From Steroidobacteraceae bacterium (GTDB lineage Bacteria > Pseudomonadota > Gammaproteobacteria > Steroidobacterales > Steroidobacteraceae): 64,000 nt of DNA. How positions within the stretch are numbered: the first letter of the stretch is position 1; the number at the start of each line of letters is the position of its first letter. The stretch is taken from the NCBI GenBank assembly GCA_036498345.1, contig DASYFQ010000018.1, forward strand, positions 29,842-93,841, written 5' to 3'. This document shows positions 883 to 21,351 of the stretch, piece after piece. The position numbers and the translations under genes are program-made. The notes beneath the pieces are model-generated. The model was not told the origin of the DNA and ran no database searches. It was given only the letters and a program-made list of their open reading frames with translations.

Positions 883-3800
883 TTAGAACTGCACCGTCGC
901 GTGCACGTACAGGTACCGTCCCAATACATCATACGTCTGCGCGAAGGTGTTGCCGTTGCAGGGGCCGGCAGCGCAGTTCCCTGATAAAACGGTCGGAGGG
1001 TCCTTGTCTAGCACATTGTTGGCTCCGAGGCGAATAGTGACATTCTTCGCTGCGGCAATCGCCGCCGACATATCGATGTAGCTGTAGTTCGATATGCTGT
1101 TGAACCCGGGGTAATTGGCACCGGGGTAGTAAAGATCAGGGCTTCCGTTACTCACGTCAACCTTGGTGGCCCCGAAGTAGCGCCAGCGCAGGTTGAAGTC
1201 GAGCCCCGACCACGGCGTTGCCCAATCCGCCGAGAACACATGGCGCCACTTCGGCAGCGGATTGCCGCAGGTCGAGCCCCACAAACCGGCGCAGTTGTAT
1301 GAAGGTGCTCCCGGTATCGGCGTTATGACGTTGTCGATTACATACGACCCTTCCAAGTTGAAGGCCAACTTACCCAGGCCATTCATATCCATGACGTAGT
1401 GAGTCTTGAGATCGACATCCCGCGTTGATATGACACCGACGTTCGCCGACGGCGTGCTCACAAAACCGCTCGAACTCAACCACAGCGAGCCGCTGGCGGA
1501 ACGATGAATCAGGCTGCAGGCCGCCGTAGCGTTGGTCAGCGCGCAGTCCGAAATGATCGCCGTGGCGGTACCCGTGGTACTTATGATGGCGTTGGTGATC
1601 TTAATGTCGTAGTAGTCAATCGATGCTGAGAAACCCCGGAGAAACGTCGGCTGGAACACGAAACCGAACGAAGTCGTATCGGCCTTTTCCGGCGTGAGAT
1701 TGGGATTGCCTCCCGACTGCGTGTTGATCTGAAACGACGAATTGACGGCCAGAGTCCCATACTGCGCCGGATTGAGGCCGGTTCTCGCGCACTCCGCCTG
1801 AGTGAGCGTCGGCGCCTTGCCCCAGCAAGGATCGAGCGTCCCGCCCGGGCCCACCGTTTGGACGGTGTACAACTCGCTGATATTGGGCACACGTACCGCG
1901 CGGTTGAAGCCGCCACGAAAGCGGATGTCGCTGACCGGCGCCCACTCGAGGCCCAGCTTGAACGTGTTGGTCTTGAACCCGAGATTGTAGCTCGAGTATC
2001 GATAGCCGCCTTCAAACGCCAATTGATCGGCTCCCGGGAGACCGTCCATGATCGGCAAGTTGAATTCCGTGAATACTTCCGCGGCATGAACTTGGCCCGA
2101 AATCGGCAGTACCGGTCCGGCCCCGCCTGAGGCTAGGCCCTGCTGGGTTGCATAATCCGGGTTGGTTGACGACGTATCTTCGCGCCACTCGGCACCCACG
2201 TTGAGCTGCATGCCGCTCTTGGCGGTCGGGAGCTGAAGGCCGTACTTTCCAAGATCGCCACTCACATCGGCATGGGCGACATATTCCGAGACGGTCCCTG
2301 TGCCACCGTTGGGAATGTTCAAGTAATTGAGCGCCGCTTGGGTTACGCCGCCAGGCACCCAAACGTTCCAGGGCACGCAAGCGGGATCAGTTTTATTGAT
2401 GACGGACACGCACGTCGGTTGGCCGTTGGGACCCGTCACGACGTCGAGCGCCTTCTGCATGGACGCGGTGGAAAAATAGTTCAGATTGTTGAAGATGGTC
2501 GTCACGTTGCTGTACTGAGCGGACGCATCGTATTTCCATGCCTCCGCGAAGTCGCCCTTGACGCCTAAGACGGTGCGGTAGGACTCGTTCGTGAACAACT
2601 CTTGGCGGCCGCCTCCCTCGACATTGCGTCGCAGGAGGTAGGCTACCTTAACCGAGTTGGCGCCAAAGGCCCCCGCCTGCGCAGCGATGTTCGCCGGGGA
2701 GCAAATCACGCTGAGTTCCTGCGCCGTCAACAGCGGGTTGCCGGGCAATCCGACTCCTGACGGTCCACAGTTGATGGTCGGGTTAGCCGTTCCGAAATCA
2801 CCGCCCGGCGCAAGCTGCGCCGTGGAGTTGTTTTTCATGAACATGAGTTCGGAGTACACCGTGGCGTGCTCGTTCACTTCGTAGTTCAGGAATGTGCCGG
2901 CAGTCCAACGCTCGTTCGGTCGCGTGTAGTAGTTGAGCGCACCGTAGTTGTAGACGTCACTCGGAGCGACCGCCCTGAACTGGCCGCTCTTCGGGTCGAC
3001 CGTGTTGTAAAACAGCTGCTGGGTGTAATCGGCGTTATAACCGTAAAAGGTGCCCCCGGCGTCGGTGTGGGAACCGCCGCAACTCACCTTGGTGTTCGTG
3101 GGGGACGTAATTTTACCGCCCATCGTGCACGCGCTGTAGTCGAAGGGCCTCTGCAGGACCGCCGCCTGGTTCGTGTAGGTCAAGTATCCCGTGGCGTTGC
3201 CCTTGCCGTCCGCGAAATTCGAACCGAGAAGAACCGCCAGGTCCTTGTTGAAGCCGCTGTCCACGCTGCCCATCAGCGGTCCGTCTCCGGCCGCGTTCAC
3301 GACCCCCGCAGCGAAGCCGTTGTGGTTACTGTGTTGGTACATGCCATAGTTGGCATCGATCTTCACGCCTTCAAAATGCGTGTTCAGGATGAAGTTGACC
3401 ACACCCGAGACCGCGTCCGCGCCGTAAGTGGCAGAGGCGCCTCCGGTCAGCACTTCGACTTTCTCGATGAGCTGCGCCGGAACCTGGTTGATATCCGAGG
3501 CATTGAGTCCCGTGGTACCGCCAGGCCCCAAGCGCCGGCCGTTGACCAGCACCAAGGTGCGTTGCGCACCCAGATCGTGCAAGTCGACCGTCGCCGTGCC
3601 GTCGGCGCCGTTCGACAAGTTGGCACCCTGGCCGGCAAACACTTGCGGAAGATTGTTGAGGATATCTTCGACGCGCGTTAAGCCCGTCGATTGAATATCG
3701 GTTGCGGTTACGGTCGTGACCGGGCTGATCGACACCAGATTGGTCGACTTGATGCGCGACCCGGTGACTACTACTTCTTCCAAACCCGTCGACGGCACTT

Positions 3801-3912
3801 CATTGGACGCGGTTTGCGCGGTCTGCGCTTGCGACAGCGGGATGGACGCGGACGCCGCCGCGAGCGCTAGCGCAGCACGGACTGCTAGCCGCAATTTAAC
3901 GTTGTTCCCCAT
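883..3912 (-). CDS. TonB-dependent receptor
   Basis: 1009 aa with a signal peptide, plug region EEVVVTGSRIK...TTVTATDIQSTGLTRVEDILN, a long barrel and the C-terminal aromatic terminus YVHATVQF. Confidence 0.9.
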   Translation of the reverse strand: MGNNVKLRLAVRAALALAAASASIPLSQAQTAQTASNEVPSTGLEEVVVTGSRIKSTNLVSISPVTTVTATDIQSTGLTRVEDILNNLPQVFAGQGANLSNGADGTATVDLHDLGAQRTLVLVNGRRLGPGGTTGLNASDINQVPAQLIEKVEVLTGGASATYGADAVSGVVNFILNTHFEGVKIDANYGMYQHSNHNGFAAGVVNAAGDGPLMGSVDSGFNKDLAVLLGSNFADGKGNATGYLTYTNQAAVLQRPFDYSACTMGGKITSPTNTKVSCGGSHTDAGGTFYGYNADYTQQLFYNTVDPKSGQFRAVAPSDVYNYGALNYYTRPNERWTAGTFLNYEVNEHATVYSELMFMKNNSTAQLAPGGDFGTANPTINCGPSGVGLPGNPLLTAQELSVICSPANIAAQAGAFGANSVKVAYLLRRNVEGGGRQELFTNESYRTVLGVKGDFAEAWKYDASAQYSNVTTIFNNLNYFSTASMQKALDVVTGPNGQPTCVSVINKTDPACVPWNVWVPGGVTQAALNYLNIPNGGTGTVSEYVAHADVSGDLGKYGLQLPTAKSGMQLNVGAEWREDTSSTNPDYATQQGLASGGAGPVLPISGQVHAAEVFTEFNLPIMDGLPGADQLAFEGGYRYSSYNLGFKTNTFKLGLEWAPVSDIRFRGGFNRAVRVPNISELYTVQTVGPGGTLDPCWGKAPTLTQAECARTGLNPAQYGTLAVNSSFQINTQSGGNPNLTPEKADTTSFGFVFQPTFLRGFSASIDYYDIKITNAIISTTGTATAIISDCALTNATAACSLIHRSASGSLWLSSSGFVSTPSANVGVISTRDVDLKTHYVMDMNGLGKLAFNLEGSYVIDNVITPIPGAPSYNCAGLWGSTCGNPLPKWRHVFSADWATPWSGLDFNLRWRYFGATKVDVSNGSPDLYYPGANYPGFNSISNYSYIDMSAAIAAAKNVTIRLGANNVLDKDPPTVLSGNCAAGPCNGNTFAQTYDVLGRYLYVHATVQF

Positions 3913-4388: not shown

Positions 4389-5894
4389 CTACCGAGCGGG
4401 TGACGGGTGGTAAAGATAGTCGCGCAAAGCGCTCACCTGCCGTTCATAGTGCCGGCTTCGTCCGGACGAGCGTCGATACAGGGGTTCCCGGACCTGCCAG
4501 ACACTGGCCGTCTTGATCGCGCGCCCAGCCTGCGGCACCGACAGACAACGCTCATCCCAGTCGAGCCCTAAAAACGCCAGCAATTGCTCCATTGCGGGCT
4601 TGGGTTCCTTGACCAAGGCATCGTAGTTCACGTCCAGAATATCCGCGCCAAAGAGCATCTTCCAATGAGCCATTAGACGCCGGTACATGAGGTAGTAATG
4701 CCCGATATCCATCAGATCGAGCGCGTAGCTCATGCCCTGATCCAGATGCAGAAAATAAATGGACAGACAGTTGTCGAGCGGGTCCCGGGTCGGGTGGACG
4801 ATCTTCGCATCCGGAAACAGCAACTTTATCAGCCCTATATAGAGGAAATTGTCGGGACGCTTGTCGGTTACCCATCCCGCCTCCGGGAAGAGGTCGTGCA
4901 GGGTGCCGAGATATTCTGCTGCGAGCGCCTGCAGACGTGGCGGGGACATCGATGCGATCGACTCGGGAAAAGGCGCGAGAGTGGTTTGCACGGTCCGCGG
5001 CAGGAAATCGAGTTCACCGCCCGCCATCACCAGCGGATGACCCGCGATGAGTTGCTCGACCAGGGTTGAACCGGAGCGAAACATCCCGCAGACGAATATC
5101 GGGCGGGGCGGCGCGGGTTGCGGCAAGATTGCGAGGGGTCGCTCAGCGATCGGCGCGGCAGGAAAAGCGGCGGTCAATCGTTCGATGAATCGCTCCTCGA
5201 GCGCAAGGTCGTAGTCGCGAAAGGCAGGTCCGGCACTCTCACGGCTATGGCGATTTGCCGCCCGGTAGGCCTCGAACGCCGCGTCATAGGCTTCACAGCC
5301 GTCGAGTGCTCGACCGAGTGCGAATCCGAGGCTCGCGCGGTCCGCGGTGCTAGTGCCTGGCTTCGTGAGTACCGCTCGCAGCCGCCCGATCATGGGATCA
5401 TCGAGAGTCGAGAACGTCTTCAGCCCCGCGTAGCGGGCGAGGACCTGCGGATCCTCGGGAGCGAGCGCCAGCAGCCGTTCATACACGGCCGCCGCAAGAT
5501 CCCGACGGCCAAGATCCTCATGGAGATTCGCCAGATTGACGAGCGCCGGAAGGTATACAGGGTTCAGTGCGAGGGCTTTCTCGAGTTCACGCTCCGCCGC
5601 ACCGTACTGGCGCAGGCAGTCACTGTAGATGACCCCGCGATTGAGATGCACCTCTTCAGGCTGCGGGACGCCCCGCTCGAGCGCCTCCTCGTAGGAGGCA
5701 AGCGCCGCGGCAAACTCTCCCGTTTGGCGCTGAAGCCTGGCGAGGTTGTACCAGCAATTGACCAACCCGGGCCAGTTGGCCAGCAGGCGTTCGTAGGCTG
5801 CAATGGCCTCGGGAATCTGCCCCTGATGCTCGAGCCGCTCTGCTTCGCTCAGCATCGCTTCGCAAGTCCCCATCAAATTCATGGCGATCCACAT
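4389..5894 (-). CDS. TPR-repeat sulfotransferase family protein
   Basis: N-terminal TPR repeats (AIAAYERLLANWPG, ALASYEEALERG). C-terminal sulfotransferase fold with the PAPS-binding loop FVCGMFRSGSTLVEQL. Confidence 0.8.
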   Translation of the reverse strand: MWIAMNLMGTCEAMLSEAERLEHQGQIPEAIAAYERLLANWPGLVNCWYNLARLQRQTGEFAAALASYEEALERGVPQPEEVHLNRGVIYSDCLRQYGAAERELEKALALNPVYLPALVNLANLHEDLGRRDLAAAVYERLLALAPEDPQVLARYAGLKTFSTLDDPMIGRLRAVLTKPGTSTADRASLGFALGRALDGCEAYDAAFEAYRAANRHSRESAGPAFRDYDLALEERFIERLTAAFPAAPIAERPLAILPQPAPPRPIFVCGMFRSGSTLVEQLIAGHPLVMAGGELDFLPRTVQTTLAPFPESIASMSPPRLQALAAEYLGTLHDLFPEAGWVTDKRPDNFLYIGLIKLLFPDAKIVHPTRDPLDNCLSIYFLHLDQGMSYALDLMDIGHYYLMYRRLMAHWKMLFGADILDVNYDALVKEPKPAMEQLLAFLGLDWDERCLSVPQAGRAIKTASVWQVREPLYRRSSGRSRHYERQVSALRDYLYHPSPAR

Positions 5895-5924: not shown

Positions 5925-8252
5925 TCAGCATACTTCTGATCGACCAACGCCATTGTCAAGTTCCTTCAGCCTCAGCAGCGGGCCAATGAAAGGCTCGTAG
6001 TTGCGCCAGCGTTCAACGGACGATTTGTCGATGATTTGCCGCACCTGCCACCGACTTCGAGTGACGACGGCACGATTTGTCTGGTTGAATCCAATGCAAC
6101 GGCTATCCCACGGTAGGCCGACGAATTCCACCATTTTGCGGCTCCATGCTTCTTGGTTGGCAACCAGCCCTTCATAAGGCACTTCCATCATCGCGTGCTT
6201 GGGCAGCAATGAGTTCCAGTGCTTCATGAGCCGCAAGTATTCGTTGTAGTAGTGGGCCAGGTCCTCGAAATCGTTGGCATAGGAATGAGCCAAGTCAAAA
6301 TTTTGGAAGTAGGCAGATAGGCAGGTATCGATCGGGTTGCGCCGCATGTGGATGATACGGGCGTTCGGCAACGCCGCGTGAATCAGACCCAAAAAGAGAA
6401 AATTGGCAGGCATCTTGTCGACCACGCGCACCGCTCCAGGCGACAAATCTTCCAGTTGCCGCAGATAATCCAAGCCAAGCCTGCCTATCAAGCGTTCTCG
6501 GGACCCGACGTCGAGCGTCGAGGATTCATAGTTCGCCGATGCCTGGCTCCAAAACGCCAGTTCGCCGGCGCCGAATACCGCGGGATGCGAGGCAAGAATC
6601 TGCTCCGCGAGCGAAGTGCCGGAGCGCGGCATCCCGACAATGAATACCGGACGCGCCGAGGCGGTCGCGGCGCCCCGTGCCTGGCTCATCCATTGGCGGT
6701 CATAGTGTTGAACCGTGAGACTCACCGCCTGCGCCAGATGCCGCCTGTCGTGTTTCGCGGTGCACAGCTTCGTCAGCTCATTCGCGCGCCGGTAATTCGC
6801 GAATGCCTGCGCGTAATCGTGCACGTCATCGAAATATTTTCCGATTGCATATCGCAGATGAACTTCTTGTCGCGGCGGCAGACGCTGGCTCGCAATTCGC
6901 TGGGCTTCGGTCAACCAGGCCGAGTCGTTCGCTGTCATTTTGCGTAAGCCGGCGATGCCCGCCCAAGCTTCCGCCGAATCCGGTTCAATCGCGATGGCAC
7001 GCTTGAACAGCTCTTCCGCTTCTGCAAACTGTCCCTTATCCGCCTGCAATTCCGCCAGGAGCACGATCGCCGCGGGCAAGTCCGGAGCAATTTCACGCGC
7101 GTTTCGGCAACTTGCCTCGGCTTCCACCATGCGGTTTTGCAGCCGTAGAACGACCCCGAGATTGCTGTGGGCCTCGGCGTAATCCGGATTGACCGCCAAT
7201 GCTTGCCGAAAACAGGCCTCCGCGTCGCCGATCCTTCCTAGATCTCGTAATGCACCTCCCAAATTGCAGTGCGCCACCGCGAAATGGGGCTCGATCTCGA
7301 GCACCCGGCGGTAGCTGGCCGTCGCGGCATCGTACTGCCCAAGGTCTCGCAACGCATTGCCGAAATTAATGCCTGCGGCGGCGAAGTCGGGCTGAATCTC
7401 GAGCGCTCGTCGATGGCTTGCGACAGCGTCATCGAACTGTCCGAGGCCTCGCAACGCGTTGCCCAAGTTGGTGTGAGCAGCGGCGAAATCGGGCTTGATC
7501 TCGAGCGCTCGTCGAAGGTGCGCCACCGCCTCGTGCGGCCGCCCGAGTTGAAGTAACACATTGCCGAGGTTGCTATGCGTCTCGGCAACATCGGGCGCGA
7601 TCTCGAGGGCCTTGCGGAAGCTCGCCGTGGCGGCATCCGGCTGTCCGAGGTCGTTCAACGCACTACCTAGGTTGCCGTGCGCGTCCGCGAGATCGGGATC
7701 AATCTCGAGCGCCCGGCGGTAGTTCACCACCGCGGCATCGAGTTGTCCGCGACTCCCTACCACGCCCCCCAATGCGACGTGCGCAATGGCGAAATCAGGC
7801 CTGATGCTGAGCGCCCGTCGATAGCAGCCCTCCGCATCCTCAAGGCGTCCCGCAACTCGCATCGCATTGCCCAAGTTAAAGTGAGACTCAGCGTCGTCCG
7901 GCAACAGCGTCGCAGTCTTTTCAAGGGCGTGCAGAGCCTCTTTGCCTTGCATCCCAAGGGAGACGCCTAAAAACTTCCAGACAATCCCCGAATTCGGATG
8001 TTGGACCAAGAGTTCGCGCGCCCTTCGTTCAACTTCGTGATACCGCTGGGCGCGCATGTCGGTCACGAGCTGGCTCACGTCAGCCTGCGCCGGTATCGTC
8101 GACCGGCCGGGTATGGTTCGCGAGTTCGGGCCGGCGTTTTTGGCCTCGGAACGCGTATCAGGCGCTTCCGATCGAATATGCCCACAGCATTTCTTGAATT
8201 TTCTCCCGCTACCGCAAGGGCATGAATCGTTTCTTCCCGTTTTCAAATTCAC
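5925..8252 (-). CDS. SEC-C motif / TPR-repeat / sulfotransferase fusion protein
   Basis: N-terminal SecA-type zinc motif CPCGSGRKFKKCCG, about 11 consecutive 34-aa TPRs, and a C-terminal sulfotransferase with PAPS loop FIVGMPRSGTSLAEQIL. Ends 30 nt upstream of the next sulfotransferase gene. Confidence 0.8.
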   Translation of the reverse strand: MNLKTGRNDSCPCGSGRKFKKCCGHIRSEAPDTRSEAKNAGPNSRTIPGRSTIPAQADVSQLVTDMRAQRYHEVERRARELLVQHPNSGIVWKFLGVSLGMQGKEALHALEKTATLLPDDAESHFNLGNAMRVAGRLEDAEGCYRRALSIRPDFAIAHVALGGVVGSRGQLDAAVVNYRRALEIDPDLADAHGNLGSALNDLGQPDAATASFRKALEIAPDVAETHSNLGNVLLQLGRPHEAVAHLRRALEIKPDFAAAHTNLGNALRGLGQFDDAVASHRRALEIQPDFAAAGINFGNALRDLGQYDAATASYRRVLEIEPHFAVAHCNLGGALRDLGRIGDAEACFRQALAVNPDYAEAHSNLGVVLRLQNRMVEAEASCRNAREIAPDLPAAIVLLAELQADKGQFAEAEELFKRAIAIEPDSAEAWAGIAGLRKMTANDSAWLTEAQRIASQRLPPRQEVHLRYAIGKYFDDVHDYAQAFANYRRANELTKLCTAKHDRRHLAQAVSLTVQHYDRQWMSQARGAATASARPVFIVGMPRSGTSLAEQILASHPAVFGAGELAFWSQASANYESSTLDVGSRERLIGRLGLDYLRQLEDLSPGAVRVVDKMPANFLFLGLIHAALPNARIIHMRRNPIDTCLSAYFQNFDLAHSYANDFEDLAHYYNEYLRLMKHWNSLLPKHAMMEVPYEGLVANQEAWSRKMVEFVGLPWDSRCIGFNQTNRAVVTRSRWQVRQIIDKSSVERWRNYEPFIGPLLRLKELDNGVGRSEVC

Positions 8253-8981: not shown

Positions 8982-9082
8982 GACATAAGCTCATATAATT
9001 GAGTAATAATCTCCCCGTTGGCCGGGTCTTTGTAGGGGAGCAGCAATATCGCTGCGTTCAATAACAAATTGAGGAATCAATC

Positions 9083-9349
9083 ATGCAGATCAATAAATTG
9101 TCGAACGCGGCGATGGCTGCTGCCGCCGCGATGTTGTTCACGTCCGGACTGGCGAGCGTGTCGGTGGCGGCAGATGCCTCCACCGCAAAGGTCCACTGTA
9201 CGGGCGTGAATTCCTGTAAGGGTACGTCCGAATGCAAGTCGGCGAAGAATAGCTGCAAGGGCATGAACAGCTGCAAGGGCATGGGCTGGGTATCGCTGTC
9301 GAAGGCCGATTGCGAAGCCGCCAAATCCAAGGCCAAGGCCGACAAGTAA
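9083..9349 (+). CDS. Cys-rich secreted RiPP precursor, bufferin (BufA)-like
   Basis: 88 aa. GAGGA Shine-Dalgarno about 8 nt upstream. Sec-type leader ending SVSVAA. Core has 6 Cys, including three NSCKG repeats. Sits directly upstream of the DUF692 and DUF2063 genes. Confidence 0.75.
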   Translation: MQINKLSNAAMAAAAAMLFTSGLASVSVAADASTAKVHCTGVNSCKGTSECKSAKNSCKGMNSCKGMGWVSLSKADCEAAKSKAKADK

Positions 9350-9366
9350 GCCGTATCGGGCTCAAC

Positions 9367-9404
9367 GATCGGGGTCGGGCGCGGCCTAGCGCCCAATCCC
9401 GATC
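9367..9404 (+). terminator. intercistronic stem-loop between precursor and modification genes (possible attenuator or partial terminator)
   Basis: Arms GATCGGGGTCGGGCGC and GCGCCCAATCCCGATC pair at 14 of 16 positions around a 6-nt loop (GGCCTA). No U-tract follows. Confidence 0.5.
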
Positions 9405-9439
9405 TCCGTGGCCCGATCTTCGCGCCCGAGCGCCCATAC

Positions 9440-10264
9440 ATGCAACTGGCCGGTTTCGGTCTCGGTCTGCGAACCCCGCACTACGAGGCCGTGCTCAACG
9501 AGCCTCACGCCATTGATTGGCTCGAAGTCATAACCGAAAACTATCTGGTGCCCGGCGGCAAGCCGCTTCACTACTTGGAGCGGATACGCGAGCGCTTCCC
9601 GCTGGTCATGCATGGCGTATCGCTGTCAATCGGCAGCACCGATCCCCTCGACGTCGACTACCTGGCCCAAGTTCGGGCGCTGGCGGCGCGCATCGAACCG
9701 CATTGGATATCCGATCATCTCTGTTGGACCGGTGTCGACGGAAGCAACCTGCACGATCTCCTGCCGCTTCCCTATACCGAAGAAGCACTGGCCTCGGTGG
9801 TCGCGCGGGTCGGTCAAGTCCAAGACGCGCTTGGGAGGCGGATCTTGCTGGAAAACGTGTCCAGCTATCTCGCCTTCCACGAATCCGACATGAGCGAATG
9901 GGAATTCTTGCGCGAGGTGGCGCAGCGCGCGGACTGCGACATTTTGCTCGACATCAATAACATCTACGTGAGCAGCGTCAATCACGGCTTCGATGCATCG
10001 ACCTACCTCGAGGCAATGCCCAAAGACCGGGTTCGTCAATTCCATCTCGCCGGCCACAGTGATCTCGGCGGCCATCTCATCGACACTCACGACCATCCGA
10101 TCGTCGAACCGGTCTGGAATCTCTACCGCGCAGCCGTCGCGCAATTCGGTGCGGTGCCGACCATGATCGAGCGCGACGACAACATTCCGGCGTTGGGCGA
10201 ACTGGTGGCGGAGCTGCAAACGGCCCGCGACCTCAGCCGTAGTTGCGCTCAGCGGGCGGCGTGA
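9440..10264 (+). CDS. DUF692 / MbnB-type multinuclear non-heme iron oxidase (MNIO), BufB-like
   Basis: [11 protein letters not shown]...[12 protein letters not shown]-terminus, plus TIM-barrel ligand-type motifs MHG, SDH, LENV, DINN, HLAGH, DTHDH and ERDD. Confidence 0.85.
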
Positions 10265-11073
10265 TGCCGCGGCAGCCTGATGCGACGGCAAGTCCCACGG
10301 CGCGGCTGCGCCAATTACAGCGGGATCTGCAAAGCCATTTGCTGGGCGAACCCAGCTCGATTGCCGCTGCCGTCGTGGATACGCCGCCCCTGCCTGCCTC
10401 TGCCCGATTGGCCATTTATCGCAATGCCTATCGAGTCAGATTGATCGAGGCGCTCGACGATACCTACCCCATTCTGCATGCCTTGCTCGGCGACGAGGTC
10501 TTCGTCGCGCTGGGCGAGGAATTCGTGGCCGCCCACCCTTCCGTGCATCGCTCGATTCGGTGGTACGGAGGCGAGCTCGCGGAATTCTTGGGACAGTGCC
10601 CACCCTATGCCGAGCAGCCTATTCTGGCGGAAGTCGCATTGTTCGAATGGACACTGGCGGAGGTCTTCGACGCAGCGGACGCCGAACCCAAGTTGCGCGC
10701 GGCACTCTCCGCCGTCGACGCGTCGGTATGGGGTGAGCTGCAATTCGAGTTCCACCCATCGTTGCGGCGTCTGCATCTTCACTGGAACACCACCGCCGTC
10801 TGGCAGGCGATGAGCCATGGTGCGACGCCGCCCGACCCGGTGTGCGCCGAGCATCCCGTGCCCTGGCTCCTATGGCGGCAAAATCTGCAGAATTACTTTC
10901 GCTCCATGACGGCTGATGAGGCGGCGGCGCTCGAAACGGCGCTGCGCGGCGGCAATTTCGGCGAGATCTGCGAGTCGCTCGCCGACTGGCTGCCCGGCGG
11001 AGAGATCCCGCTGCGCGCCGCGAGCTTGCTCGGCACTTGGGCGGACAGCGGGATCATCGTCGGCCTCAACTGA
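10264..11073 (+). CDS. DUF2063 domain protein (MNIO partner, BufC-like)
   Basis: LQRDLQSHLLG...AIYRNAYRVRLIEALDDTYP is typical of DUF2063. The ATG at 10264 overlaps the DUF692 stop (TGATG). The ORF track start at 10243 is an alternative. Confidence 0.8.
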   Translation: MPRQPDATASPTARLRQLQRDLQSHLLGEPSSIAAAVVDTPPLPASARLAIYRNAYRVRLIEALDDTYPILHALLGDEVFVALGEEFVAAHPSVHRSIRWYGGELAEFLGQCPPYAEQPILAEVALFEWTLAEVFDAADAEPKLRAALSAVDASVWGELQFEFHPSLRRLHLHWNTTAVWQAMSHGATPPDPVCAEHPVPWLLWRQNLQNYFRSMTADEAAALETALRGGNFGEICESLADWLPGGEIPLRAASLLGTWADSGIIVGLN

Positions 11074-11143
11074 ACGCCGGACGCGGCCCAAGAATAACGA
11101 CCCCCGAAGCGTTGTTCGACCTTCATTGTCGAGAGAACCAATA

Positions 11144-11857
11144 ATGGCAAATCACAGCGTTGAAAATACCCCGCAGCGGTACGCACGAATAGGCGGCTTG
11201 CTATACCTGGCAATCATCATTCTCGGCGCTTTTGCTGAAGGATTTGTCGCCGACAAACTCGTCGTGCCGGGTGACGCTGCGACGACGGCGCACAACATTT
11301 TGGCCTCACCGGAGTTGTGGCGCTTCAGCGTCGCCGGCGACTTGATCGTCGCGTTATGTGCCGTGCCATTGATGTGGATTGAGTATCTGTTGCTCAGACC
11401 AGTCAACAAGCACCTGGTTCTGCTTGCCGTGTTATTCAATCTGGTGTCCCTTGCTGTTGAAGCGATGAGCAAGTTGTTTCTTATCGTAGTGATGCCTATA
11501 TTGGGGAACGCCGATTACCTAAGAGCATTTGAACCCCAGCAGCTACAGATTCTCGCGAACCTGGCTCTCAAATCACATGACATTGCCTTCAATATTGCCC
11601 TGATATTTTTTGGCTTCACCTGTCTGGTGAATGGTTACCTGATCTTTAGATCGGGCTATTTTCCGAAGCTTATCGGTATATTGATGCAGCTTGCCGGCCT
11701 GAGTTACCTGACGGCCTGTTTTTCGGCGCTTTTTGCCCCTGCATTCGCCGGTCTGATAATTCCTGCCGTTCTGATTCTGCCGTTGATTGGAGAGTCGTCA
11801 TTTTGCCTGTGGCTTCTCGTGAAGGGAGTGAATATCGCGAAGTGGAATGCATCTTGA
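11144..11857 (+). CDS. DUF4386-like polytopic membrane protein
   Basis: The N-terminus QRYARIGGLLYLAIIILGAFAEGFV...AATTAHNILASPELWR resembles DUF4386. Several TM segments. GC is visibly lower than in the flanks. Confidence 0.65.
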   Translation: MANHSVENTPQRYARIGGLLYLAIIILGAFAEGFVADKLVVPGDAATTAHNILASPELWRFSVAGDLIVALCAVPLMWIEYLLLRPVNKHLVLLAVLFNLVSLAVEAMSKLFLIVVMPILGNADYLRAFEPQQLQILANLALKSHDIAFNIALIFFGFTCLVNGYLIFRSGYFPKLIGILMQLAGLSYLTACFSALFAPAFAGLIIPAVLILPLIGESSFCLWLLVKGVNIAKWNAS

Positions 11858-11859
11858 TA

Positions 11860-12420
11860 TTACCCATCGTTGCCGCGCTCACGGAGCGCCGTGATCGCTC
11901 GCGCGGCGTCCATCAAATTGGGTGCGATGATATCCGGCTGGGCCCGCACGGCCGTTGACGAGTCGGGGGCGATCAATATCGTAGTCGCTCCCGCGCGGCG
12001 GCCGAACTCTATGTCCGATTCCTTGTCCCCGATCATGATGGCCGACGCGGGATCAAAGCCTAAATCGGAAGCCGCCCGCAAGAGCAAACCAAGCTGCGGT
12101 TTTCGACAGGCGCAGCCGTCATCCGGCGCGTGCGGGCAATAATAAATGCCCTCGAGTCTGGCCCCTATCTCTTCCATCATGACATTCAAGCGCGTATTCA
12201 TTGCCTCGACCCGTTCGGTGGTAAAGAAGCCTCTCCCCACGCCGGACTGATTGGTAATGACGACCAGGCGGTAACCGCGGGAGTACAGCCATTTCATGCC
12301 TTCCGCTGCTCCGGGCTCGAATTCCAGGCCGGCCGGGTCGCTCAGGTATCCGCGGTCGATCACCAGGGTGCCGTCGCGATCCAGGATCACGACCTTGTCC
12401 GCTGCATTCCCGCCGCTCAC
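11860..12420 (-). CDS. gmhB: D-glycero-beta-D-manno-heptose 1,7-bisphosphate 7-phosphatase
   Basis: HAD motif VILDRDGTL, VVITNQSGVGRG, and the Zn-loop YYCPHAPDDGCACRKPQ. Overlaps the hldE stop by 4 nt. Confidence 0.85.
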   Translation of the reverse strand: MSGGNAADKVVILDRDGTLVIDRGYLSDPAGLEFEPGAAEGMKWLYSRGYRLVVITNQSGVGRGFFTTERVEAMNTRLNVMMEEIGARLEGIYYCPHAPDDGCACRKPQLGLLLRAASDLGFDPASAIMIGDKESDIEFGRRAGATTILIAPDSSTAVRAQPDIIAPNLMDAARAITALRERGNDG

Positions 12421-13889
12421 GAGCCGGATGACCCGGTGACGCGCGTGACGGTATCGGTCGTGCTATGACCGGCCAGGAGATCCGCGAGCAGCACCCTGCC
12501 GCCGCGCCGGATGACGAAGTCAGCACCGACGACCTGGTCCAGCGTGTAATCCGCGCCTTTGACCAAGACGTCCGGCGCCAGCGCTTCGATGAGATCGATC
12601 GGCGTGTCTTCGGCAAAGATCACCACGGCGTCGACGGATTTTACCGCCGAGAGCACGGTCGCACGCGCCACCTCCGCTTGTATCGGGCGGTTCGGACCTT
12701 TCAAGCGCCGAATCGACGAATCGGCGTTGAGCCCCACGATCAGGCGATCCGCGCTGTGGCGGGCCTGCTCGAGCAGCGATATGTGCCCTGGATGCAGCAA
12801 ATCGAAACAGCCGTTCGCGAACGCAATCTTGAGGCCCTGTTCGCGCCAGCTGCGGGCCAATTGCAGGACGGTGTCCAATGCGAAGATTTTTTGCGGATCC
12901 GTACTTCCGTCGAACGGCCTCTGCACTGCGATCATTTCTCCCGCGGTGACGGTCGCGGTACCCCGCTTTCCCACGACGATGCCGGCGGCAATATTCGCCA
13001 GCGCCGCGGCGTCTACCACGTCAGCTCCCGCCGCAAGACCGAGCGATATCACGGCGACCACGGTGTCGCCCGCCCCCGATACGTCGAAGACCTGCCGCTT
13101 CGCGGTGCGCAGATGCACGGCGCTGCCGCCCGCTCGAACGATGGACATACCGTCCTTGCCGCGCGTGACCACCATGGCGTCACAGATCTCTTGTTCCAAG
13201 ATCCGATGCGCCCCATTGACCACCTGTTCGTCGGCAAGGCACTCCTGCCCGCAGGCCTGCCGCAATTCCAGCTGATTCGGAGTCAGCACGGTTGCGCCCC
13301 GATATCTCGCGAAGTTCTTCGATTTTGGATCGACGATGACGATCTTGCCGGCGCGCCGAGCGATATCGATCGCGGCGCGGGCGACTGGATCCGAAAGAAC
13401 TCCCTTCGCGTAGTCGGACAGCACGACCACTCCCGCACCGGCCAGCGCCGCCGAGTATTCATCGAGCAATCGCTCCGCGATGTGAGCCGGAAGCGGATCT
13501 CGACTTTCCCGGTCCGCGCGCATCACTTGCTGTCCGTCCGCCACGTAGCGGGTCTTGACGGTGGTGGGACGCGATGGATCCACGATCAAGCGCGCATCGA
13601 TCGTCACCGAGGAGGCCAGTTGAACGCGCAAGTCTGCCGCCCACGCGTCATCGCCGACTATGCCGAGCAGTATCGCACGGGCGCCCAGGGCCGCGATGTT
13701 GCGCGCGACATTCGCCGCGCCGCCCGGCATGTCCAGAAACCGTTCTACGTTGACCACCGGAATCGGCGCCTCCGGCGAGATCCGTTCCACCGAGCCATAG
13801 ATGAATCGATCGAGCATGACGTCGCCCAGCACCAGCACGCGTGCCGCGGGGAATCCGCTCAACAGCCGGATCAGCGCCTCGGATTTCAT
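12417..13889 (-). CDS. hldE: bifunctional heptose 7-phosphate kinase / heptose 1-phosphate adenylyltransferase
   Basis: N-terminal pfkB-type kinase and C-terminal cytidylyltransferase (FANGCFDLLHPGHISLL). Start set at the ATG at 13889 (MKSEALIRLL), giving a 4-nt overlap with the gmhA stop. Confidence 0.9.
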   Translation of the reverse strand: MKSEALIRLLSGFPAARVLVLGDVMLDRFIYGSVERISPEAPIPVVNVERFLDMPGGAANVARNIAALGARAILLGIVGDDAWAADLRVQLASSVTIDARLIVDPSRPTTVKTRYVADGQQVMRADRESRDPLPAHIAERLLDEYSAALAGAGVVVLSDYAKGVLSDPVARAAIDIARRAGKIVIVDPKSKNFARYRGATVLTPNQLELRQACGQECLADEQVVNGAHRILEQEICDAMVVTRGKDGMSIVRAGGSAVHLRTAKRQVFDVSGAGDTVVAVISLGLAAGADVVDAAALANIAAGIVVGKRGTATVTAGEMIAVQRPFDGSTDPQKIFALDTVLQLARSWREQGLKIAFANGCFDLLHPGHISLLEQARHSADRLIVGLNADSSIRRLKGPNRPIQAEVARATVLSAVKSVDAVVIFAEDTPIDLIEALAPDVLVKGADYTLDQVVGADFVIRRGGRVLLADLLAGHSTTDTVTRVTGSSGS

Positions 13890-14509
13890 GGGCCGGCCGC
13901 TACCAGACCGAGGCGCTGTTCCAACGCCTTGCACAACATGTGGCCGATCAGGCCGTGGAGTTCCTGGATTCTCGCCGTCACAGTCGACGGTACGACGATC
14001 ACGGCATCGCAGGCGCTGCGCATTTTGCCGCCGGTACCGCCGGTGAGACCCACGGTCTTCAGGCCCATCGCTCTCGCCCGATCAAGGCCCCTGAGCACGT
14101 TCGCGCTGTTGCCCGACGTCGATATCGCCACGGCCGCATCTCCCTTGCGGCCCAAGGCTTCGATCTGGCGCTCAAACAAAGCATCGAAGCCCATGTCGTT
14201 GCCGCAGGCCGTCAGCGTCGACGTGTCGGTCGTCAGCGCGATGGCTGAGATCGCCGCACGATCGGCCTGGTAGCGGACGATCAGCTCCGCCGCGATGTGC
14301 TGCGCATCGGCCGCACTGCCGCCGTTTCCAAACAGCAATAACTTACCGCCGCTGCGCACGGCGCGGTCCAGAATGTCGAGCGCCTCGACGAATGGCCGGG
14401 CGAGCATGAGAGCAGTCGCCTCGAACACCCTGCGATGCTCATTCAGTTCTTGTTGCAGCAGGGCTTCCGCCGGCGGGAGCAATGCGCTTTGACTATCGTT
14501 TATTGACAT
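13886..14509 (-). CDS. gmhA: phosphoheptose isomerase (SIS domain)
   Basis: LLLFGNGGSAADAQHIAAEL plus AISTSGNSANV SIS motifs. Lies in the heptose operon. Confidence 0.85.
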   Translation of the reverse strand: MSINDSQSALLPPAEALLQQELNEHRRVFEATALMLARPFVEALDILDRAVRSGGKLLLFGNGGSAADAQHIAAELIVRYQADRAAISAIALTTDTSTLTACGNDMGFDALFERQIEALGRKGDAAVAISTSGNSANVLRGLDRARAMGLKTVGLTGGTGGKMRSACDAVIVVPSTVTARIQELHGLIGHMLCKALEQRLGLVAAGP

Positions 14510-14530
14510 AGGGTCATTGTACGCAGCGGC

Positions 14531-15514
14531 TCAATGATACGGATCGTCTGCAGCGAGATAGTTCCGGACGTACGTCGATATGCCCTCCTCGAGAGAGGTA
14601 AACGGCCGGCCGTAGCCGGCTGATCGCAGCCGGTCCATTCGCGCTTCCGTGAAGTACTGGTACTTCCCGCGCAAGTTTTCCGGCATGTCGACGAACTCGA
14701 TTCTCCGCGGCTGCCCCGCCGCATCGAACAGAGCGTGCGCAAGATCCAGCCAGGTACGCGCCTTACCCGTACCCAAGTTGAACAGACCGGATATTTGCCG
14801 ATGCTCCACGAGCCAAAGAATGACGTCGACACAATCCTGCACGTAGACGAAGTCGCGCAATTGTCCGCCATCCGCATAATCAGGTCGATAGCTTCGGTAG
14901 AGGCCCAGCGGGCGAGCGGCCCGGATCAGCGAGTAGTTCTTGGCGATCACGCTCTGCATGTGGCCCTTGTGATACTCATTCGGCCCATAGACATTGAAGA
15001 ATTTCAGTCCGGCCCATTGCGGCGGCAACGCCTGCTCCTGCTCGGCCAGACGGGCGATGCGCCGATCGACGACATGTTTGCTCCATCCATAGGCATTGAG
15101 CGGGCGCAGCAGCGCGAGCGCGTCGCAGCTGAACGCATCGTCGAATCCGCGGGCGCCGTCGCCGTAGGTAGCCGCCGAGGAGGCGTAAATGAAGCGGGTT
15201 TTCGTTTCGGTGCACCATTCAAGCAACCTCAACGTCGTACGCACGTTATTGAGGGTGATCCGGTCGACATCGGTCTCGGTGGTCGAGCTGATTGCACCCA
15301 TATGGATCACCGCTTCGACTTTGGTCTGATTGCCGCGCAGCCAGTCCGGCAAATCTTCGGGGGAGACGATATCGGCTATCTCGTGTTTCGCCAAATTGCG
15401 CCATCGTTCATCGCTGCGCAACCAATCGCAGACGACCACGTCCTGGCGGCGAGCGGCCAGCGCGGCGACGACATTCGAGCCGATGAAGCCGGCGCCGCCC
15501 GTTACGAGGTACAT
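14531..15514 (-). CDS. hldD: ADP-glyceromanno-heptose 6-epimerase
   Basis: MYLVTGGAGFIGSNVV Rossmann start. The 49-aa N-terminal extension in the ORF track has no family counterpart. Confidence 0.85.
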   Translation of the reverse strand: MYLVTGGAGFIGSNVVAALAARRQDVVVCDWLRSDERWRNLAKHEIADIVSPEDLPDWLRGNQTKVEAVIHMGAISSTTETDVDRITLNNVRTTLRLLEWCTETKTRFIYASSAATYGDGARGFDDAFSCDALALLRPLNAYGWSKHVVDRRIARLAEQEQALPPQWAGLKFFNVYGPNEYHKGHMQSVIAKNYSLIRAARPLGLYRSYRPDYADGGQLRDFVYVQDCVDVILWLVEHRQISGLFNLGTGKARTWLDLAHALFDAAGQPRRIEFVDMPENLRGKYQYFTEARMDRLRSAGYGRPFTSLEEGISTYVRNYLAADDPYH

Positions 15515-15738
15515 TTGTGTCGCCGCCGTAGGGTCGAACGCAGGCACTCCATCCGCGCGGCGCGTATCTCGATCAACCTCTTCACCGGGGTAGTCATGGC
15601 GAAGGACATGATACGTGTTCCCCGGCCGGACGAAAACGCGGTGAACGGCGGCTCGAACCAATTATCGATTCGAACCGCCGTTCGCCCAGCCCTGAGGATC
15701 GCCGCAGGCGTCGGCCAGGCGGCCACAGGTGCAACTTG

Positions 15739-17505
15739 CTACAGGAGCGCGCCCTGCTCGCCCATCATTTGCTTGCGCAGCAACGGAATCGGCGGACCTC
15801 CAAAGGACAAGAACTGGTCATGGAAGTCATGCCACAGCGCTTGTTCATCCGCGGGTGCCGCCGCGGAGGCCGCGCCAGAGTGCTTGGCGGTCCAGTCGGT
15901 CCGCAGTTTCCGAATCATGAGTTTGCCCAGCGTGTAATTCAGATACGCCGGATCATAGGTGCCTCGCGCAGCTTGCTGGCGCGCGTTGCCTGGATCTTGG
16001 AATGCCTGCTCCCGGAACATCTTGTCGGACTGCGCCACGGTCATACCGCGAGTGTGCAATCCGATGGACGACAAGAAGCGGACGTCGCGCAACAAGGCGT
16101 CGGTGATTTGACCGATGTGCTTCTCGGGGTCGCCCTTCCCCAAGCCTTTCTCGTACATCATTTCCTCGCAGTAGTGGGCCCACCCTTCCGCGAACCCATA
16201 TCCCACCCACAAGGCTTCGAGCTTCGTGGGATTGGCGTTCGAATGCAGGAACTGCAAGAAATGTCCGGGCCATACCTCATGCACTGACGTGAACAGCAGC
16301 GTCGCCTCGCTCGGGATATAGGCCTCTTGTTCGGCCTTGCTCCACTTCGGGTCCGGCGGCGCAATGTTATAAACGGACGCGACTCCGTGATCGTAGGGCC
16401 CGGGCACCAGGATGAACGCGGCATTGGAGCGGTTGTAGATCGGCGCCTCCGCGACCTTGGCTTCCTCGGCGCTCGGTATGGAGACCACATTGTTCTTCAC
16501 GATGAAGTCCTTGAGCATCGCCAACTGGGCGCGGGCGGCCTCGACCGCCCCGTCTTTGGGCTTATGCGCCGACACCTTCGCAACACATTGCGCCAGGGTC
16601 GCCTTCGGTGCATAGGTCTCGCACTCGGTCTTGAGCGCCGCCGTATTGCGGTCGAGATCGGCGCGGCCGGCCGCCTCGAGCTGATCGATCGGGACATCCA
16701 CTCGTTCGGTTTGCGAAATCATCTGCGCGTACAGGTCCGGACCCAGAGCAAACTTTTCGTTCGCCTGTTTGCGATCCTCTTCGAATGTCCTCTTGAGGGC
16801 ATCCATCGCCTGCGCCGCCGCGGTGTCAGCCTCAGTGAGCTGCTTTTGCAGCTCGGGATCGTTCACCGATTCGAAGGTGGGAGCCACCTTTTTCGAATAA
16901 AAATCAGCCAAGCCGCCAAACTGCGCGATGCCCAATTCCACATAGGTCTTGGGCAAGGGCGATTGAAGGTTGGCTTTGATGTCGTTGGCCATCTTGGGAA
17001 TGCCGCGCGCGTACTTGATGTACGCCTTCATGCGCGCCTCGAGCGGCGCGTAGTCGCGGTTCAAGTACATGTCGGGATCCAGTCTGCCCATATACCAAGC
17101 CGGGTTGCTGAATGGGAACTTGGCCTTCTCCATCCAGAACAATTCGCCATCGACGACGGCCAGCAGATATTCGCGGTCGAAGCGCTCCCGCGGTTGCAAG
17201 GTTTTCGGATCGACCGCCGCGATTTGATCGCGCTGATCATGCAGGCGGGCGATCTCACGCCTGATTCCGTGATTGCTCAAGTCAGGCAGCTGGCCGTCGA
17301 ATTCGTGGCGGCCGGATTGTGCGGCGAAGAAGGGCCGAGCGGCGAAATAACTCTGGATGAAGCCCGCCGTGAGCTTATCCCACGCCTGACTGGCCGGGGA
17401 TGGACCCTTGGCTCCTCCGGACGCCGGCGGTGACTGATTGCATGCTGTCAGACCGAGAAACAGAACTCCCGACAATGCCGCTCCAACCTTCAGCGACTTC
17501 CACAT
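15739..17505 (-). CDS. DUF885 family lipoprotein
   Basis: Signal peptide with lipobox LGLTAC. The FTSVHEVWPGHFLQ motif and overall character are typical of DUF885. Confidence 0.75.
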   Translation of the reverse strand: MWKSLKVGAALSGVLFLGLTACNQSPPASGGAKGPSPASQAWDKLTAGFIQSYFAARPFFAAQSGRHEFDGQLPDLSNHGIRREIARLHDQRDQIAAVDPKTLQPRERFDREYLLAVVDGELFWMEKAKFPFSNPAWYMGRLDPDMYLNRDYAPLEARMKAYIKYARGIPKMANDIKANLQSPLPKTYVELGIAQFGGLADFYSKKVAPTFESVNDPELQKQLTEADTAAAQAMDALKRTFEEDRKQANEKFALGPDLYAQMISQTERVDVPIDQLEAAGRADLDRNTAALKTECETYAPKATLAQCVAKVSAHKPKDGAVEAARAQLAMLKDFIVKNNVVSIPSAEEAKVAEAPIYNRSNAAFILVPGPYDHGVASVYNIAPPDPKWSKAEQEAYIPSEATLLFTSVHEVWPGHFLQFLHSNANPTKLEALWVGYGFAEGWAHYCEEMMYEKGLGKGDPEKHIGQITDALLRDVRFLSSIGLHTRGMTVAQSDKMFREQAFQDPGNARQQAARGTYDPAYLNYTLGKLMIRKLRTDWTAKHSGAASAAAPADEQALWHDFHDQFLSFGGPPIPLLRKQMMGEQGALL

Positions 17506-17792
17506 AATAGCTCCCCCCTTTATAAGTATTAAGACTCGATACGCAAACCTCGACTCGCGGTTCTAGAACGAATAGGCGCCGCCGCGTTCCGGCGCACGCT
17601 GATGGGCGGCGCGCGCGCGAATACGGCGGCGAAAGACGGTCAATCGGGGACAGCTGGCATCCAGGCCCGCGGGCGAAGCTGCGGCTTCCAGGGGAAAACT
17701 CATTGCACATCCGCCGCGGTGAACTCCGTACCGGCGATGCGCTGCGCGGCGGCGCTGACAGGCACCCGCTGCGACCATGAATCATTGAGGCG

Positions 17793-17852
17793 GTGCACGG
17801 TGATCATGCGTATTGCGCACTGATCATTGCTGTTGCACGGTGATCATTGCCG
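17793..17852 (+). promoter_or_regulatory. three phased 20-bp direct repeats, each containing TGATCAT (GATC), upstream of fbp
   Basis: TGATCAT occurs at 17801, 17821 and 17841, exactly 20 bp apart. Repeat units are GTGCACGGTGATCATGCGTA, TTGCGCACTGATCATTGCTG and TTGCACGGTGATCATTGCCG. Confidence 0.45.
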
Positions 17853-17928
17853 CATTGTATGGCATTCTTCGACCATGAACAGCGCAGGAGAACCCTTAAA
17901 CAAACCCGCTCACGATGACTTACGCATC

Positions 17929-18900
17929 ATGACGCTCCAAGCGCATATTCTCGAACAACACGTCGACCAGCCTCAGGCCGGCGGGACTTTTTCCTGGATC
18001 CTGTCCGCGCTGTCGATCTCTGCGAAGATCATCGCGGACAAGGTGCGCCGCGCGCGGCTGGAAAATGTCCTCGGCAGCATCGGCACCGAGAATGTTCAGG
18101 GCGAAGTCCAGCAAAAGCTCGACGTGATCGCCAACGAAGTATTGCTGCGCTGTTTGGGCGGCCGGGAGGGCGTGGCCATCGTCGCGTCGGAGGAAAACGA
18201 AGAGCCGATGATCCTGCGGGAAGACAACCAGGGCATCCCGCGGTATTGCGTGCTGTTCGATCCTCTCGACGGCTCCTCGAATCTCGATGTCTGCGGGGGT
18301 GTGGGCACGATTTTCAGCATCCTGTCGCACGACAACCGCGCGCAGCACGCCGCGGACTCGCTGCTGCAAGTGGGCGCGCGGCAAATCGCGGCCGGCTATG
18401 TTCTCTACGGCTCATCCACGGTGTTCGTGCTGACCATCGGCAAGGGTGTGGACCTGTTCGTGCTCGATCCAAGCGTCGGGGCTTTCATGCGGGTCGAACG
18501 AAATCTGCGAATCCCCTCGGGGAACAGGACCTACTCGGTCAACGAAGGCAACCGCAGGACATTCCCCGAAGGTTACCGGCGCTACCTTGATTGGGCGCAG
18601 AGCAGCGGCTACTCGAGCCGTTATGCGGGCGCCATGGTCGCCGACGTACACCGCATTTTGCTCAAGGGTGGCGTGTTTTTATACCCGCCGACCACCAAAT
18701 CACCGGAAGGCAAGCTGCGCCTGATGTACGAAGCCAATCCCATGGCCATGATCGTCGAACAGGCCGGCGGCAAGGCCGCCGCCGGCATCGGGCAGCGGAT
18801 CATGGACATCCAACCGACCGCGATTCATCAGCGCACGCCCGTGATATTGGGAGCGGCGGATCAGGTGGATGCGGTGCTCACGCACCTCGCGAGCAGCTGA
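17929..18900 (+). CDS. fbp: fructose-1,6-bisphosphatase class 1
   Basis: TENVQGEVQQKLDVIANE, FDPLDGSSNLDV and other class-1 FBPase motifs. Start chosen at MTLQAHILEQ because it matches the usual Fbp N-terminus. ATG 17875 is an alternative. Confidence 0.9.
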   Translation: MTLQAHILEQHVDQPQAGGTFSWILSALSISAKIIADKVRRARLENVLGSIGTENVQGEVQQKLDVIANEVLLRCLGGREGVAIVASEENEEPMILREDNQGIPRYCVLFDPLDGSSNLDVCGGVGTIFSILSHDNRAQHAADSLLQVGARQIAAGYVLYGSSTVFVLTIGKGVDLFVLDPSVGAFMRVERNLRIPSGNRTYSVNEGNRRTFPEGYRRYLDWAQSSGYSSRYAGAMVADVHRILLKGGVFLYPPTTKSPEGKLRLMYEANPMAMIVEQAGGKAAAGIGQRIMDIQPTAIHQRTPVILGAADQVDAVLTHLASS

Positions 18901-19575
18901 TCAACCATTCTCGCCGGGCGGAAACCACTCGGCCTTGGCCGCGCGAAATTCCGGCAGCGCCTCGCAGCGCTCGGCAATCGCCGCGAGCCCGGGATACGCA
19001 ACCGCCGCGCGATTGATCGCCAGCGCGTCGACCGCGAACGTATACGCGCAGGTCGCGGTGATATCTGCCTGGGTGATGCGATTGCCGATCAGCCATTCGC
19101 CGGCGCGGGCCTGAGACAAACGATTGAGCTCGGCGAGCGCCGCGTGCATTTGGGTGTGGCAACGTTCCATCCACGGCCGGTAGCGCTTCTCCGGAGGCCG
19201 AAACACCGTTTCATAGACCTGTGTTACGCCCTTCTCCGCCGCACCCGTCGCAACCGCCAAGACCCGCAGCGCCTCGCGCCGCTCCTTGCCCGAACGCGGC
19301 AGGAGCGCGCGCTCCGGACCCGCGTACTCATCCAGCAGGTCCAAAATCGCCGCGGATTCGATCAGCGTCTCGCCGTCGGGCTGCACCAAAATCGGAACCC
19401 GGCCGAGGGGGTTGAATTGCCGGATCAACTCGAAGTCCTTGCCGACGGACCAATTACGGTGCTCGAACGCTATTCCGAGCAGATTCATGCTCACGGCGAC
19501 GCGACGCACGAAGGGTGAGTCAAACATACCAATGAGAATCAAGCGACGATGCCTCCGAAGAAATTTAGTGGCCAC
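18901..19575 (-). CDS. glutathione S-transferase
   Basis: Thioredoxin-like N-terminal domain LILIGMFDSPFVRRVAVSMNLLGIAFEH followed by a helical C-terminal domain. Converges on fbp with no spacer. Confidence 0.8.
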   Translation of the reverse strand: MATKFLRRHRRLILIGMFDSPFVRRVAVSMNLLGIAFEHRNWSVGKDFELIRQFNPLGRVPILVQPDGETLIESAAILDLLDEYAGPERALLPRSGKERREALRVLAVATGAAEKGVTQVYETVFRPPEKRYRPWMERCHTQMHAALAELNRLSQARAGEWLIGNRITQADITATCAYTFAVDALAINRAAVAYPGLAAIAERCEALPEFRAAKAEWFPPGENG

Positions 19576-21324: not shown

Positions 21325-21351
21325 ACGTCGTCCTCGAGACGCAAAGAGAGA

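Follow-up and report, generated by a model that had tools for sequence, protein, structure and literature searches.

A predicted Buf2-type bufferin operon of three genes, and a separate DUF4386 gene beside it, in an uncultured Steroidobacteraceae lineage

Captophorins are encoded by more than 24,000 MNIO-PME1 loci, and roughly every second reference genome of the Pseudomonadota has them (PMC13097082). In the bufferins of Caulobacter, members of this family, a small secreted precursor is matured by a multi-iron oxidase of the MNIO family (DUF692) and a DUF2063 partner. The founding buf2 operon consists of bufA2B2C2 and has no bufD/DoxX; it is both induced by copper and protective against it (PMC11626156). 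Its peptide shows a mass shift of -18 Da, to which the four central cysteines contribute -4 Da each, with Cys-I and Cys-VI unmodified and likely joined in a disulfide (PMC11626156). The 5-thiooxazole has been confirmed in related captophorins (PMC13097082). Here we describe a related locus in 64,000 nucleotides of contig DASYFQ010000018.1, a stretch which is referred to below as the window. With a probability of roughly 0.87, judged from the genes and their relatives, positions 8983-11073 of the window form a canonical bufferin operon of the Buf2 type with the three genes bufA2-bufB-bufC, and the DUF4386 gene downstream is a separate and unrelated neighbour.

An original prediction, made from the letters of the window, had proposed a bufferin-type operon for a peptide that is made by the ribosome and modified after translation (RiPP), composed of a precursor, a DUF692 oxidase and a DUF2063 protein. 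Pfam matches and the scores of the NCBIfam BufA2 and BufB models bear this out. The four open reading frames, six cysteines, hairpin, overlapping start and stop codons and low-GC stretch (GC denoting G+C content) on which it drew were all recovered where they had been placed. By its family profiles, the locus is assigned to the Buf2 class, that is, the six-Cys, BufA2-containing 'Cys-Lys' captophorins, which is more exact than a plain bufferin call.

The precursor gene bufA2 (9083-9349, + strand) was identified by NCBIfam model NF050166, by its homologues and by alignment. Its product, a bufferin-2 precursor of 88 residues, scores 91.5 bits against NF050166 (Cu_RiPP_BufA2; cutoff 60) and covers profile positions 2-77 of 79, and this family membership is a direct observation. 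Pfam gave no DUF2282 match in the window. By inspection, a putative Sec-type signal peptide occupies residues 1-30: its n-region contains Lys, its hydrophobic core reads AAMAAAAAMLF, the predicted cleavage site between VAA and D is kept in homologues, and a lipobox Cys is missing. The remaining core of 58 residues carries all cysteines, at residues 39, 45, 51, 58, 64 and 77 of the precursor or positions 9, 15, 21, 28, 34 and 47 of the core.

A protein search returned 909 homologues of the precursor, and 62 sequences from species-representative genomes were aligned. All six Cys columns are 100% invariant in this alignment, whose consensus reads C-x-G-V-N-x-C-K-G-x-S-x-C-K-x-A-x-N-x-C-K-G-x-N-x-C-K-G-x-G...C. 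Following the cysteines, Lys is conserved at 77-95%, and Gly at 98-100% at three sites. The triple-NSCKG core had been regarded as a compact repeat variant; since N-x-C-K-G is the consensus of the 62 homologues, the repeats are instead a signature of the family, and the only local peculiarity of the window precursor is a two-residue insertion past the predicted cleavage site. It had also been held that the modified cysteines cannot be predicted, which proved too pessimistic: the invariance of the six Cys columns, together with the pattern of Caulobacter Buf2, makes them predictable by homology.

The second gene, bufB (9440-10264, + strand), encodes the predicted bufferin maturase, an MNIO of 274 residues. 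It matches Pfam PF05114 (MbnB_TglH_ChrH/DUF692; E 1.5e-114) and scores 396.6 bits against the MNIO_BufB equivalog NF050167 (cutoff 310). The NCBIfam models for HvfB, ApyH, MbnB and ChrH all place it under their cutoffs, with 72.8 bits against 325 for the MbnB model. All of the motifs MHG, SDH, LENV, DINN, HLAGH, DTHDH and ERDD are found in the protein. Among PDB sequences it aligns to 3BWW (2e-49), to 8HCI and to the methanobactin oxidase MbnB 7DZ9 (E 4e-14), and residues H58, D92/H93, E138, D171, N174, H202, D215, H217 and E244 are seen to be identical in both 3BWW and 7DZ9. The original prediction had made its call depend on a precursor that matches a bufferin model and an oxidase that retains its iron ligands; both were found. 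Furthermore, BufB carries ERDD at residues 244-247 where 3BWW carries ERDF. A 2026 study identified Asp instead of Phe after the catalytic Asp as the residue that determines the use of C-K substrates, BufB2 being an example (PMC13097082). By this comparison, D246-D247 would represent the proposed catalytic Asp and the determinant of the Cys-Lys class.

The third gene, bufC (10264-11073, + strand), encodes a DUF2063 partner of the PME1 type with 269 residues, which matches Pfam PF09836 (E 1.1e-24). Its ATG overlaps the TGA of bufB in the sequence TGATG (10262-10266). The NCBIfam model RiPP_RRE_HvfC aligns over its full length, at residues 45-267, but below threshold (E 4.6e-10), and the C-terminal part is predicted to be a RiPP recognition element (RRE). 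A search of BufC against PDB sequences gave no match at E <= 0.01, although 3DEE is named in the literature as a structure of a PME1 protein.

The same gene order is common among relatives. A genome scan with BufB yielded 80 species-representative loci related to the window BufB, and a BufA2 homologue precedes BufB in 70 of them and a BufC homologue follows it in 76. The best BufB matches (82-90% identity) lie in metagenome-assembled genomes (MAGs) of Steroidobacteraceae, which suggests this lineage for the host, an uncultured soil gammaproteobacterium. The family is known already and very widely distributed, and the locus is an ordinary additional member of it.

By analogy with Caulobacter, the following sequence of events can be proposed, in which both the chemistry and the copper role are inferred. 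In the cytoplasm, BufB and its partner BufC would bind the 88-residue precursor, and the four central core cysteines (15, 21, 28 and 34), which lie in x-C-K-G/S motifs, would be converted to 5-thiooxazoles. The peptide would then be exported by Sec and cut by signal peptidase after VAA (residue 30), and core Cys9 and Cys47 would form a disulfide. The resulting periplasmic peptide of ~58 residues would sequester copper, and a conserved hairpin 3' of bufA2 probably sets a high ratio of precursor to enzymes.

This hairpin lies in the bufA2-bufB spacer (9355-9417, + strand), where it was identified by folding and by its recurrence in relatives, and no U-tract follows it. It has a folding energy of -49.4 kcal/mol (z = -3.99), and only 1 of 200 shuffled sequences folds as well. 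Stable hairpins (z < -2, median -2.9) also occur in the bufA-bufB spacers of 51 of 65 related Buf2 loci (L019-L098). A scan for intrinsic terminators does not call the hairpin, and the bufferin paper of 2024 contains no discussion of a hairpin in this spacer. Its probable function, a high precursor-to-enzyme expression ratio, would be comparable to that of the attenuator or stabiliser hairpins which follow the precursor genes of other RiPP operons.

Upstream of bufA2, a putative promoter/leader region (8983-9082, + strand) is conserved: in an alignment of 15 buf2 loci of the Steroidobacteraceae lineage, these 100 bp align despite a differing upstream gene, and the homology starts directly past the dgkA stop codon. 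Besides a ribosome-binding site, GAGG, three motifs stand out in it: a TAAGCTyA palindrome, GTAATAAT-N14-GGGTCT and a small GCAGC-N6-GCTGC inverted repeat, which in one locus (L028) has a compensatory change. These motifs are candidate regulatory sites within a presumed promoter/operator region, and GTAATAAT-N14-GGGTCT is possibly a promoter of the extracytoplasmic function (ECF) type. A scan for sigma-70 promoters found nothing 5' of bufA2. At first sight, the conserved motifs do not match the Caulobacter SigF promoter. Rfam, applied to the whole window at gathering thresholds, gave no match, and thus no riboswitch or known RNA near the operon.

The gene that follows bufC is of a different kind. 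The DUF4386 segment (11087-11857, + strand) consists of a ~57-bp leader and a gene at 11144-11857 for a protein of 237 residues that matches Pfam PF14329 (E 4e-51). It had been described as the fourth member of the operon, a claim which its distribution does not sustain. No DUF4386 gene is present at any of the 80 related buf loci, and bufA2, bufB and bufC are likewise missing from all 66 metagenome loci that hold close DUF4386 relatives. In 14 of the 15 closest relatives, bufC directly abuts a convergent DUF885 gene, and DUF4386 is missing at the site; the DUF885 gene is followed by genes for FBPase, GST and MobA/MobL. This order is kept in the window beyond an extra block, at 15739-22416. 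Given the upstream conservation in the 15 relatives and the abutment of bufC and DUF885 in 14 of them, the conserved unit is 8983-11073, and 11074-15738 is an addition. By synteny with the closest relatives, this addition is a lineage-specific block of 4.66 kb between bufC and the DUF885 gene. Both the synteny and the independent distribution of DUF4386 are observed directly, as is the composition of the gene discussed below.

Outside this setting, DUF4386 genes are abundant. Thousands of close homologues (~3,700) occur in soil metagenomes, the top 120 of which are 81-100% identical to the window protein. Those examined lie in settings unrelated to one another: queA/tgt are the neighbours in a Steroidobacteraceae contig, and nitrile hydratase and toxin-antitoxin genes in another case, while elsewhere the gene lies 3' of exbD, 3' of apbC (in a Burkholderiaceae MAG), or between an MscS channel gene and a GST gene. 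The window gene shares 84-87.5% DNA identity with copies in unrelated contexts, and in an alignment of six copies the homology begins ~57 bp 5' of the ATG, so that the gene has a conserved leader of its own. Across the loci examined (L001-L011 and L100-L165), DUF4386 appears as a promiscuous single-gene traveller among soil bacteria, at ~85% DNA identity. The window copy diverges from the others seven codons ahead of their usual stop (WNAS-stop versus WKERISM..AI-stop), and its stop codon lies 2 bp from that of the convergent gmhB gene. These features fit a gene that was acquired independently and lost its 3' end to a rearrangement. DUF4386 is a horizontally circulating single gene that landed beside bufC in this lineage only, at the edge of the 4.66-kb block.

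Searches for a vehicle or a function of DUF4386 returned little. Neither a transposase nor a repeat boundary could be made out at its copies, and no DNA match was found among 72,556 plasmids; at the protein level, plasmid matches reach 30-42% identity only, in cyanobacterial and haloarchaeal plasmids. An AlphaFold model of the protein is of good confidence and all-helical (pLDDT 86.5, pTM 0.81), and a Foldseek search with it found no PDB match under E 0.1. PADLOC reported nothing, and PHROGs gave one weak partial match only (E 0.0054), to a family of unknown function. DUF4386 is not mentioned in the literature searched, nor does it occur in the supplementary data of two MNIO surveys. A sigma-70 site at 11116-11145 was considered as its promoter and rejected, as the -10 hexamer overlaps the ATG.

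Several points weigh against a canonical Buf2 operon with an unrelated neighbour. The chemistry of modification, copper binding and regulation of the window operon are assigned wholly by homology. BufC scores far below the curated cutoff of the HvfC model, and its RRE domain is a prediction only. The DUF4386 gene lies on the same strand as bufC at a distance of 70 bp, and the scan for intrinsic terminators found none after bufA2, bufC or DUF4386; the bufC-DUF4386 and DUF4386-gmhB spacers also fold no better than shuffled sequences. With no predicted terminator in the gap, read-through co-transcription is possible. The transcription units are inferred. In addition, in a diverged 2465-bp contig of JGI sample 3300067032, a DUF2063 gene is followed at a distance of ~160 bp by a full-length DUF4386 gene of 93% identity, the stop codon of which is overlapped by another same-strand gene. 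As the copy is full-length, the two genes were neighbours before the window copy lost its 3' end, and the order bufC-DUF4386 is common to a small clade rather than to one genome. This adjacency was found only in the window's own population (L012, L013) and in the JGI contig. Finally, the low GC of the DUF4386 gene could partly reflect hydrophobic composition. Several alternative explanations were weighed.

The first alternative accepts a Buf2-like peptide, but places its physiological target in another metal or in a stress other than copper. The original prediction had pointed out that no copper sensor or efflux gene is adjacent, and indeed none was seen among the large open reading frames from position 80 to ~23.5 kb and a partial sample to ~40 kb. 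MerC-bufferin fusions, with possible roles of bufferins with other metals, have also been noted (PMC12452194), and the lack of an obvious SigF-type match upstream of bufA2 would point the same way. However, control of buf2 in Caulobacter lies with SigF, whose gene is located elsewhere, and sigma/anti-sigma genes are reported in Buf1 but not in Buf2 clusters (PMC11626156; PMC12452194), so that missing neighbours say little. The above-threshold match of the precursor to the BufA2 equivalog and the copper selectivity of Buf1 (PMC11626156) also speak for copper, and we regard a different target as improbable.

According to a second alternative, the locus is a bufferin variant of four genes, with the DUF4386 membrane protein taking over the function of BufD, the DoxX-type partner. 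Besides its position behind bufC and the recurrence of this arrangement in the JGI contig, this proposal can draw on the frequency of DoxX, which reaches 67.8% when all MNIO-PME1 loci are pooled (PMC13097082, Table S1). The original prediction had seen DUF4386 where a DoxX-type partner is expected. That expectation does not hold for this class. DoxX is missing from Caulobacter buf2 and dispensable even for Buf1 (PMC11626156). Only 6-7 of the 80 related loci have DoxX-like open reading frames, three of which were confirmed by Pfam; all lie 5' of bufA2 and none after bufC. None is present in the 15 closest relatives, and a tblastn search with the three Pfam-confirmed DoxX proteins found no match in the 64-kb window. 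The high overall frequency of DoxX thus does not extend to the Buf2 class. A comparison of DUF4386 with DoxX by hhalign gave a probability of 0.3%, the power of which is limited by the shallowness of both profiles. With its independent distribution, foreign composition and own conserved leader, DUF4386 is very unlikely to be a substitute for BufD.

A third alternative concerns the origin of the gene and holds that its low GC is an effect of hydrophobic composition only, DUF4386 having long been in place instead of having come in horizontally. Over 11400-11800, GC drops to 0.465-0.49, while the flanks have 0.60-0.70. Leu, Ile and Phe are abundant in the encoded protein, and the gene lies below its flanks in every host examined (mean GC 0.52 against 0.61, in 41 of 41 metagenome DUF4386 loci with enough flank), as a composition effect predicts. 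Nevertheless, the window gene is low not only in overall GC (0.507) but also at third codon positions, with a value of 0.60 compared to 0.72-0.81 in neighbouring genes. The 84-87.5% DNA identity noted above links contigs labelled Steroidobacteraceae and Burkholderiaceae with unrelated flanks. Together with the missing gene in 14 of 15 relatives and the loss of its 3' end at the junction, this makes long residence a highly doubtful account.

We give least credence to the idea that a small Steroidobacteraceae clade, comprising the window's population and the JGI contig, captured the horizontally acquired DUF4386 behind bufC, where it would be co-transcribed by read-through and act with the bufferin, e.g., as a membrane redox or handling partner. 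If true, a Buf2 system would here have recruited DUF4386 as a new accessory. For the canonical operon with a separate neighbour, which we prefer, the consequence is practical: the apparent 'new fourth gene' is not to be carried forward as a bufferin variant, because it is the product of a lineage-specific insertion.

The remainder of the inserted block is occupied by gmhB (11860-12420), hldE (12417-13934), gmhA (13886-14509) and hldD (14531-15661), all on the - strand. They represent a complete cluster for the ADP-heptose pathway (lipopolysaccharide heptose), found here only in the window lineage. Beyond the block follow the genes for DUF885 (15739-17505, - strand), FBPase (17827-18900), GST (18901-19575, - strand) and MobA/MobL (21352-22416, - strand). 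Several relatives also have the MobA/MobL relaxase gene in synteny with the buf2-DUF885 region, and in one of these loci (L014, 12171-14267) a gene for a TraG/type IV secretion coupling protein follows it. This suggests that an integrated mobilisable element has left a remnant a few kb away from the operon. A scan for tRNA and tmRNA genes found none in the window, and there is thus no obvious integration site. On the other side of the operon, two tandem genes for TPR-repeat proteins with a sulfotransferase domain (Sulfotransfer_3) lie at 4389-5894 and 5925-8252 (- strand), the larger with an N-terminal SEC-C motif, and are adjoined by a TonB-dependent receptor gene (883-3912, - strand). A similar TPR-sulfotransferase gene lies near buf2 in four further loci (L019, L021, L026 and L045).

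Apart from the convergent DUF885, no recurrent fourth gene was found 3' of bufC in relatives. Elsewhere, bufC is followed by DsbB in L034 (6537-7028), by a YHS-domain protein in L053, where the reading frame overlaps the bufC stop, and in ~14 loci (L030-L048, L059, L076, L093) by a cystathionine beta-synthase-like enzyme of 457 residues with PALP and CBS domains. DsbB, YHS and PALP+CBS proteins after bufC hint at thiol- or metal-related neighbours.

As one more canonical Buf2 case, from a soil lineage that is uncultured, the locus carries little weight beyond annotation. Its likeness to described systems is greatest for buf2 of Caulobacter vibrioides (CCNA_02999-03001), with which it shares three genes, a six-Cys C-K precursor (with a Sec signal that is putative in the window), an MNIO and a DUF2063 protein, and in both cases DoxX and adjoining sigma/anti-sigma genes are missing. 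It differs in that the host of the former is an alphaproteobacterium and that the upstream motifs of the window are not tied to SigF. Buf1 (bufA1B1C1D1) has the MNIO and DUF2063 enzymology in common with the window operon, and, by homology, the 5-thiooxazole, the outer disulfide and periplasmic copper buffering would be shared too. In contrast, Buf1 uses a 4-Cys DUF2282 precursor together with DoxX (bufD) and often has sigF/nrsF nearby, whereas the window has neither a DUF2282 match nor DoxX. The 'Lys-Cys' captophorins fontiphorin, oxazolin and gonophorin, which are of the HvfABC type with EGKCG repeats, resemble it as MNIO-PME1 systems for Cys-rich peptides, with 5-thiooxazoles and Sec export that are predicted in the case of the window, but have a K-C-G instead of a C-K-G motif, and an MNIO with ERDF (3BWW) where that of the window has ERDD (PMC13097082). 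The likeness to methanobactin MbnBC lies in the MNIO fold and iron ligands and, as predicted for the window, in an oxidation of Cys that gives a copper ligand. There, however, the partner MbnC is not a DUF2063 protein, the leader peptide has no Sec signal, and the product is an oxazolone-thioamide that is secreted as a chalkophore.

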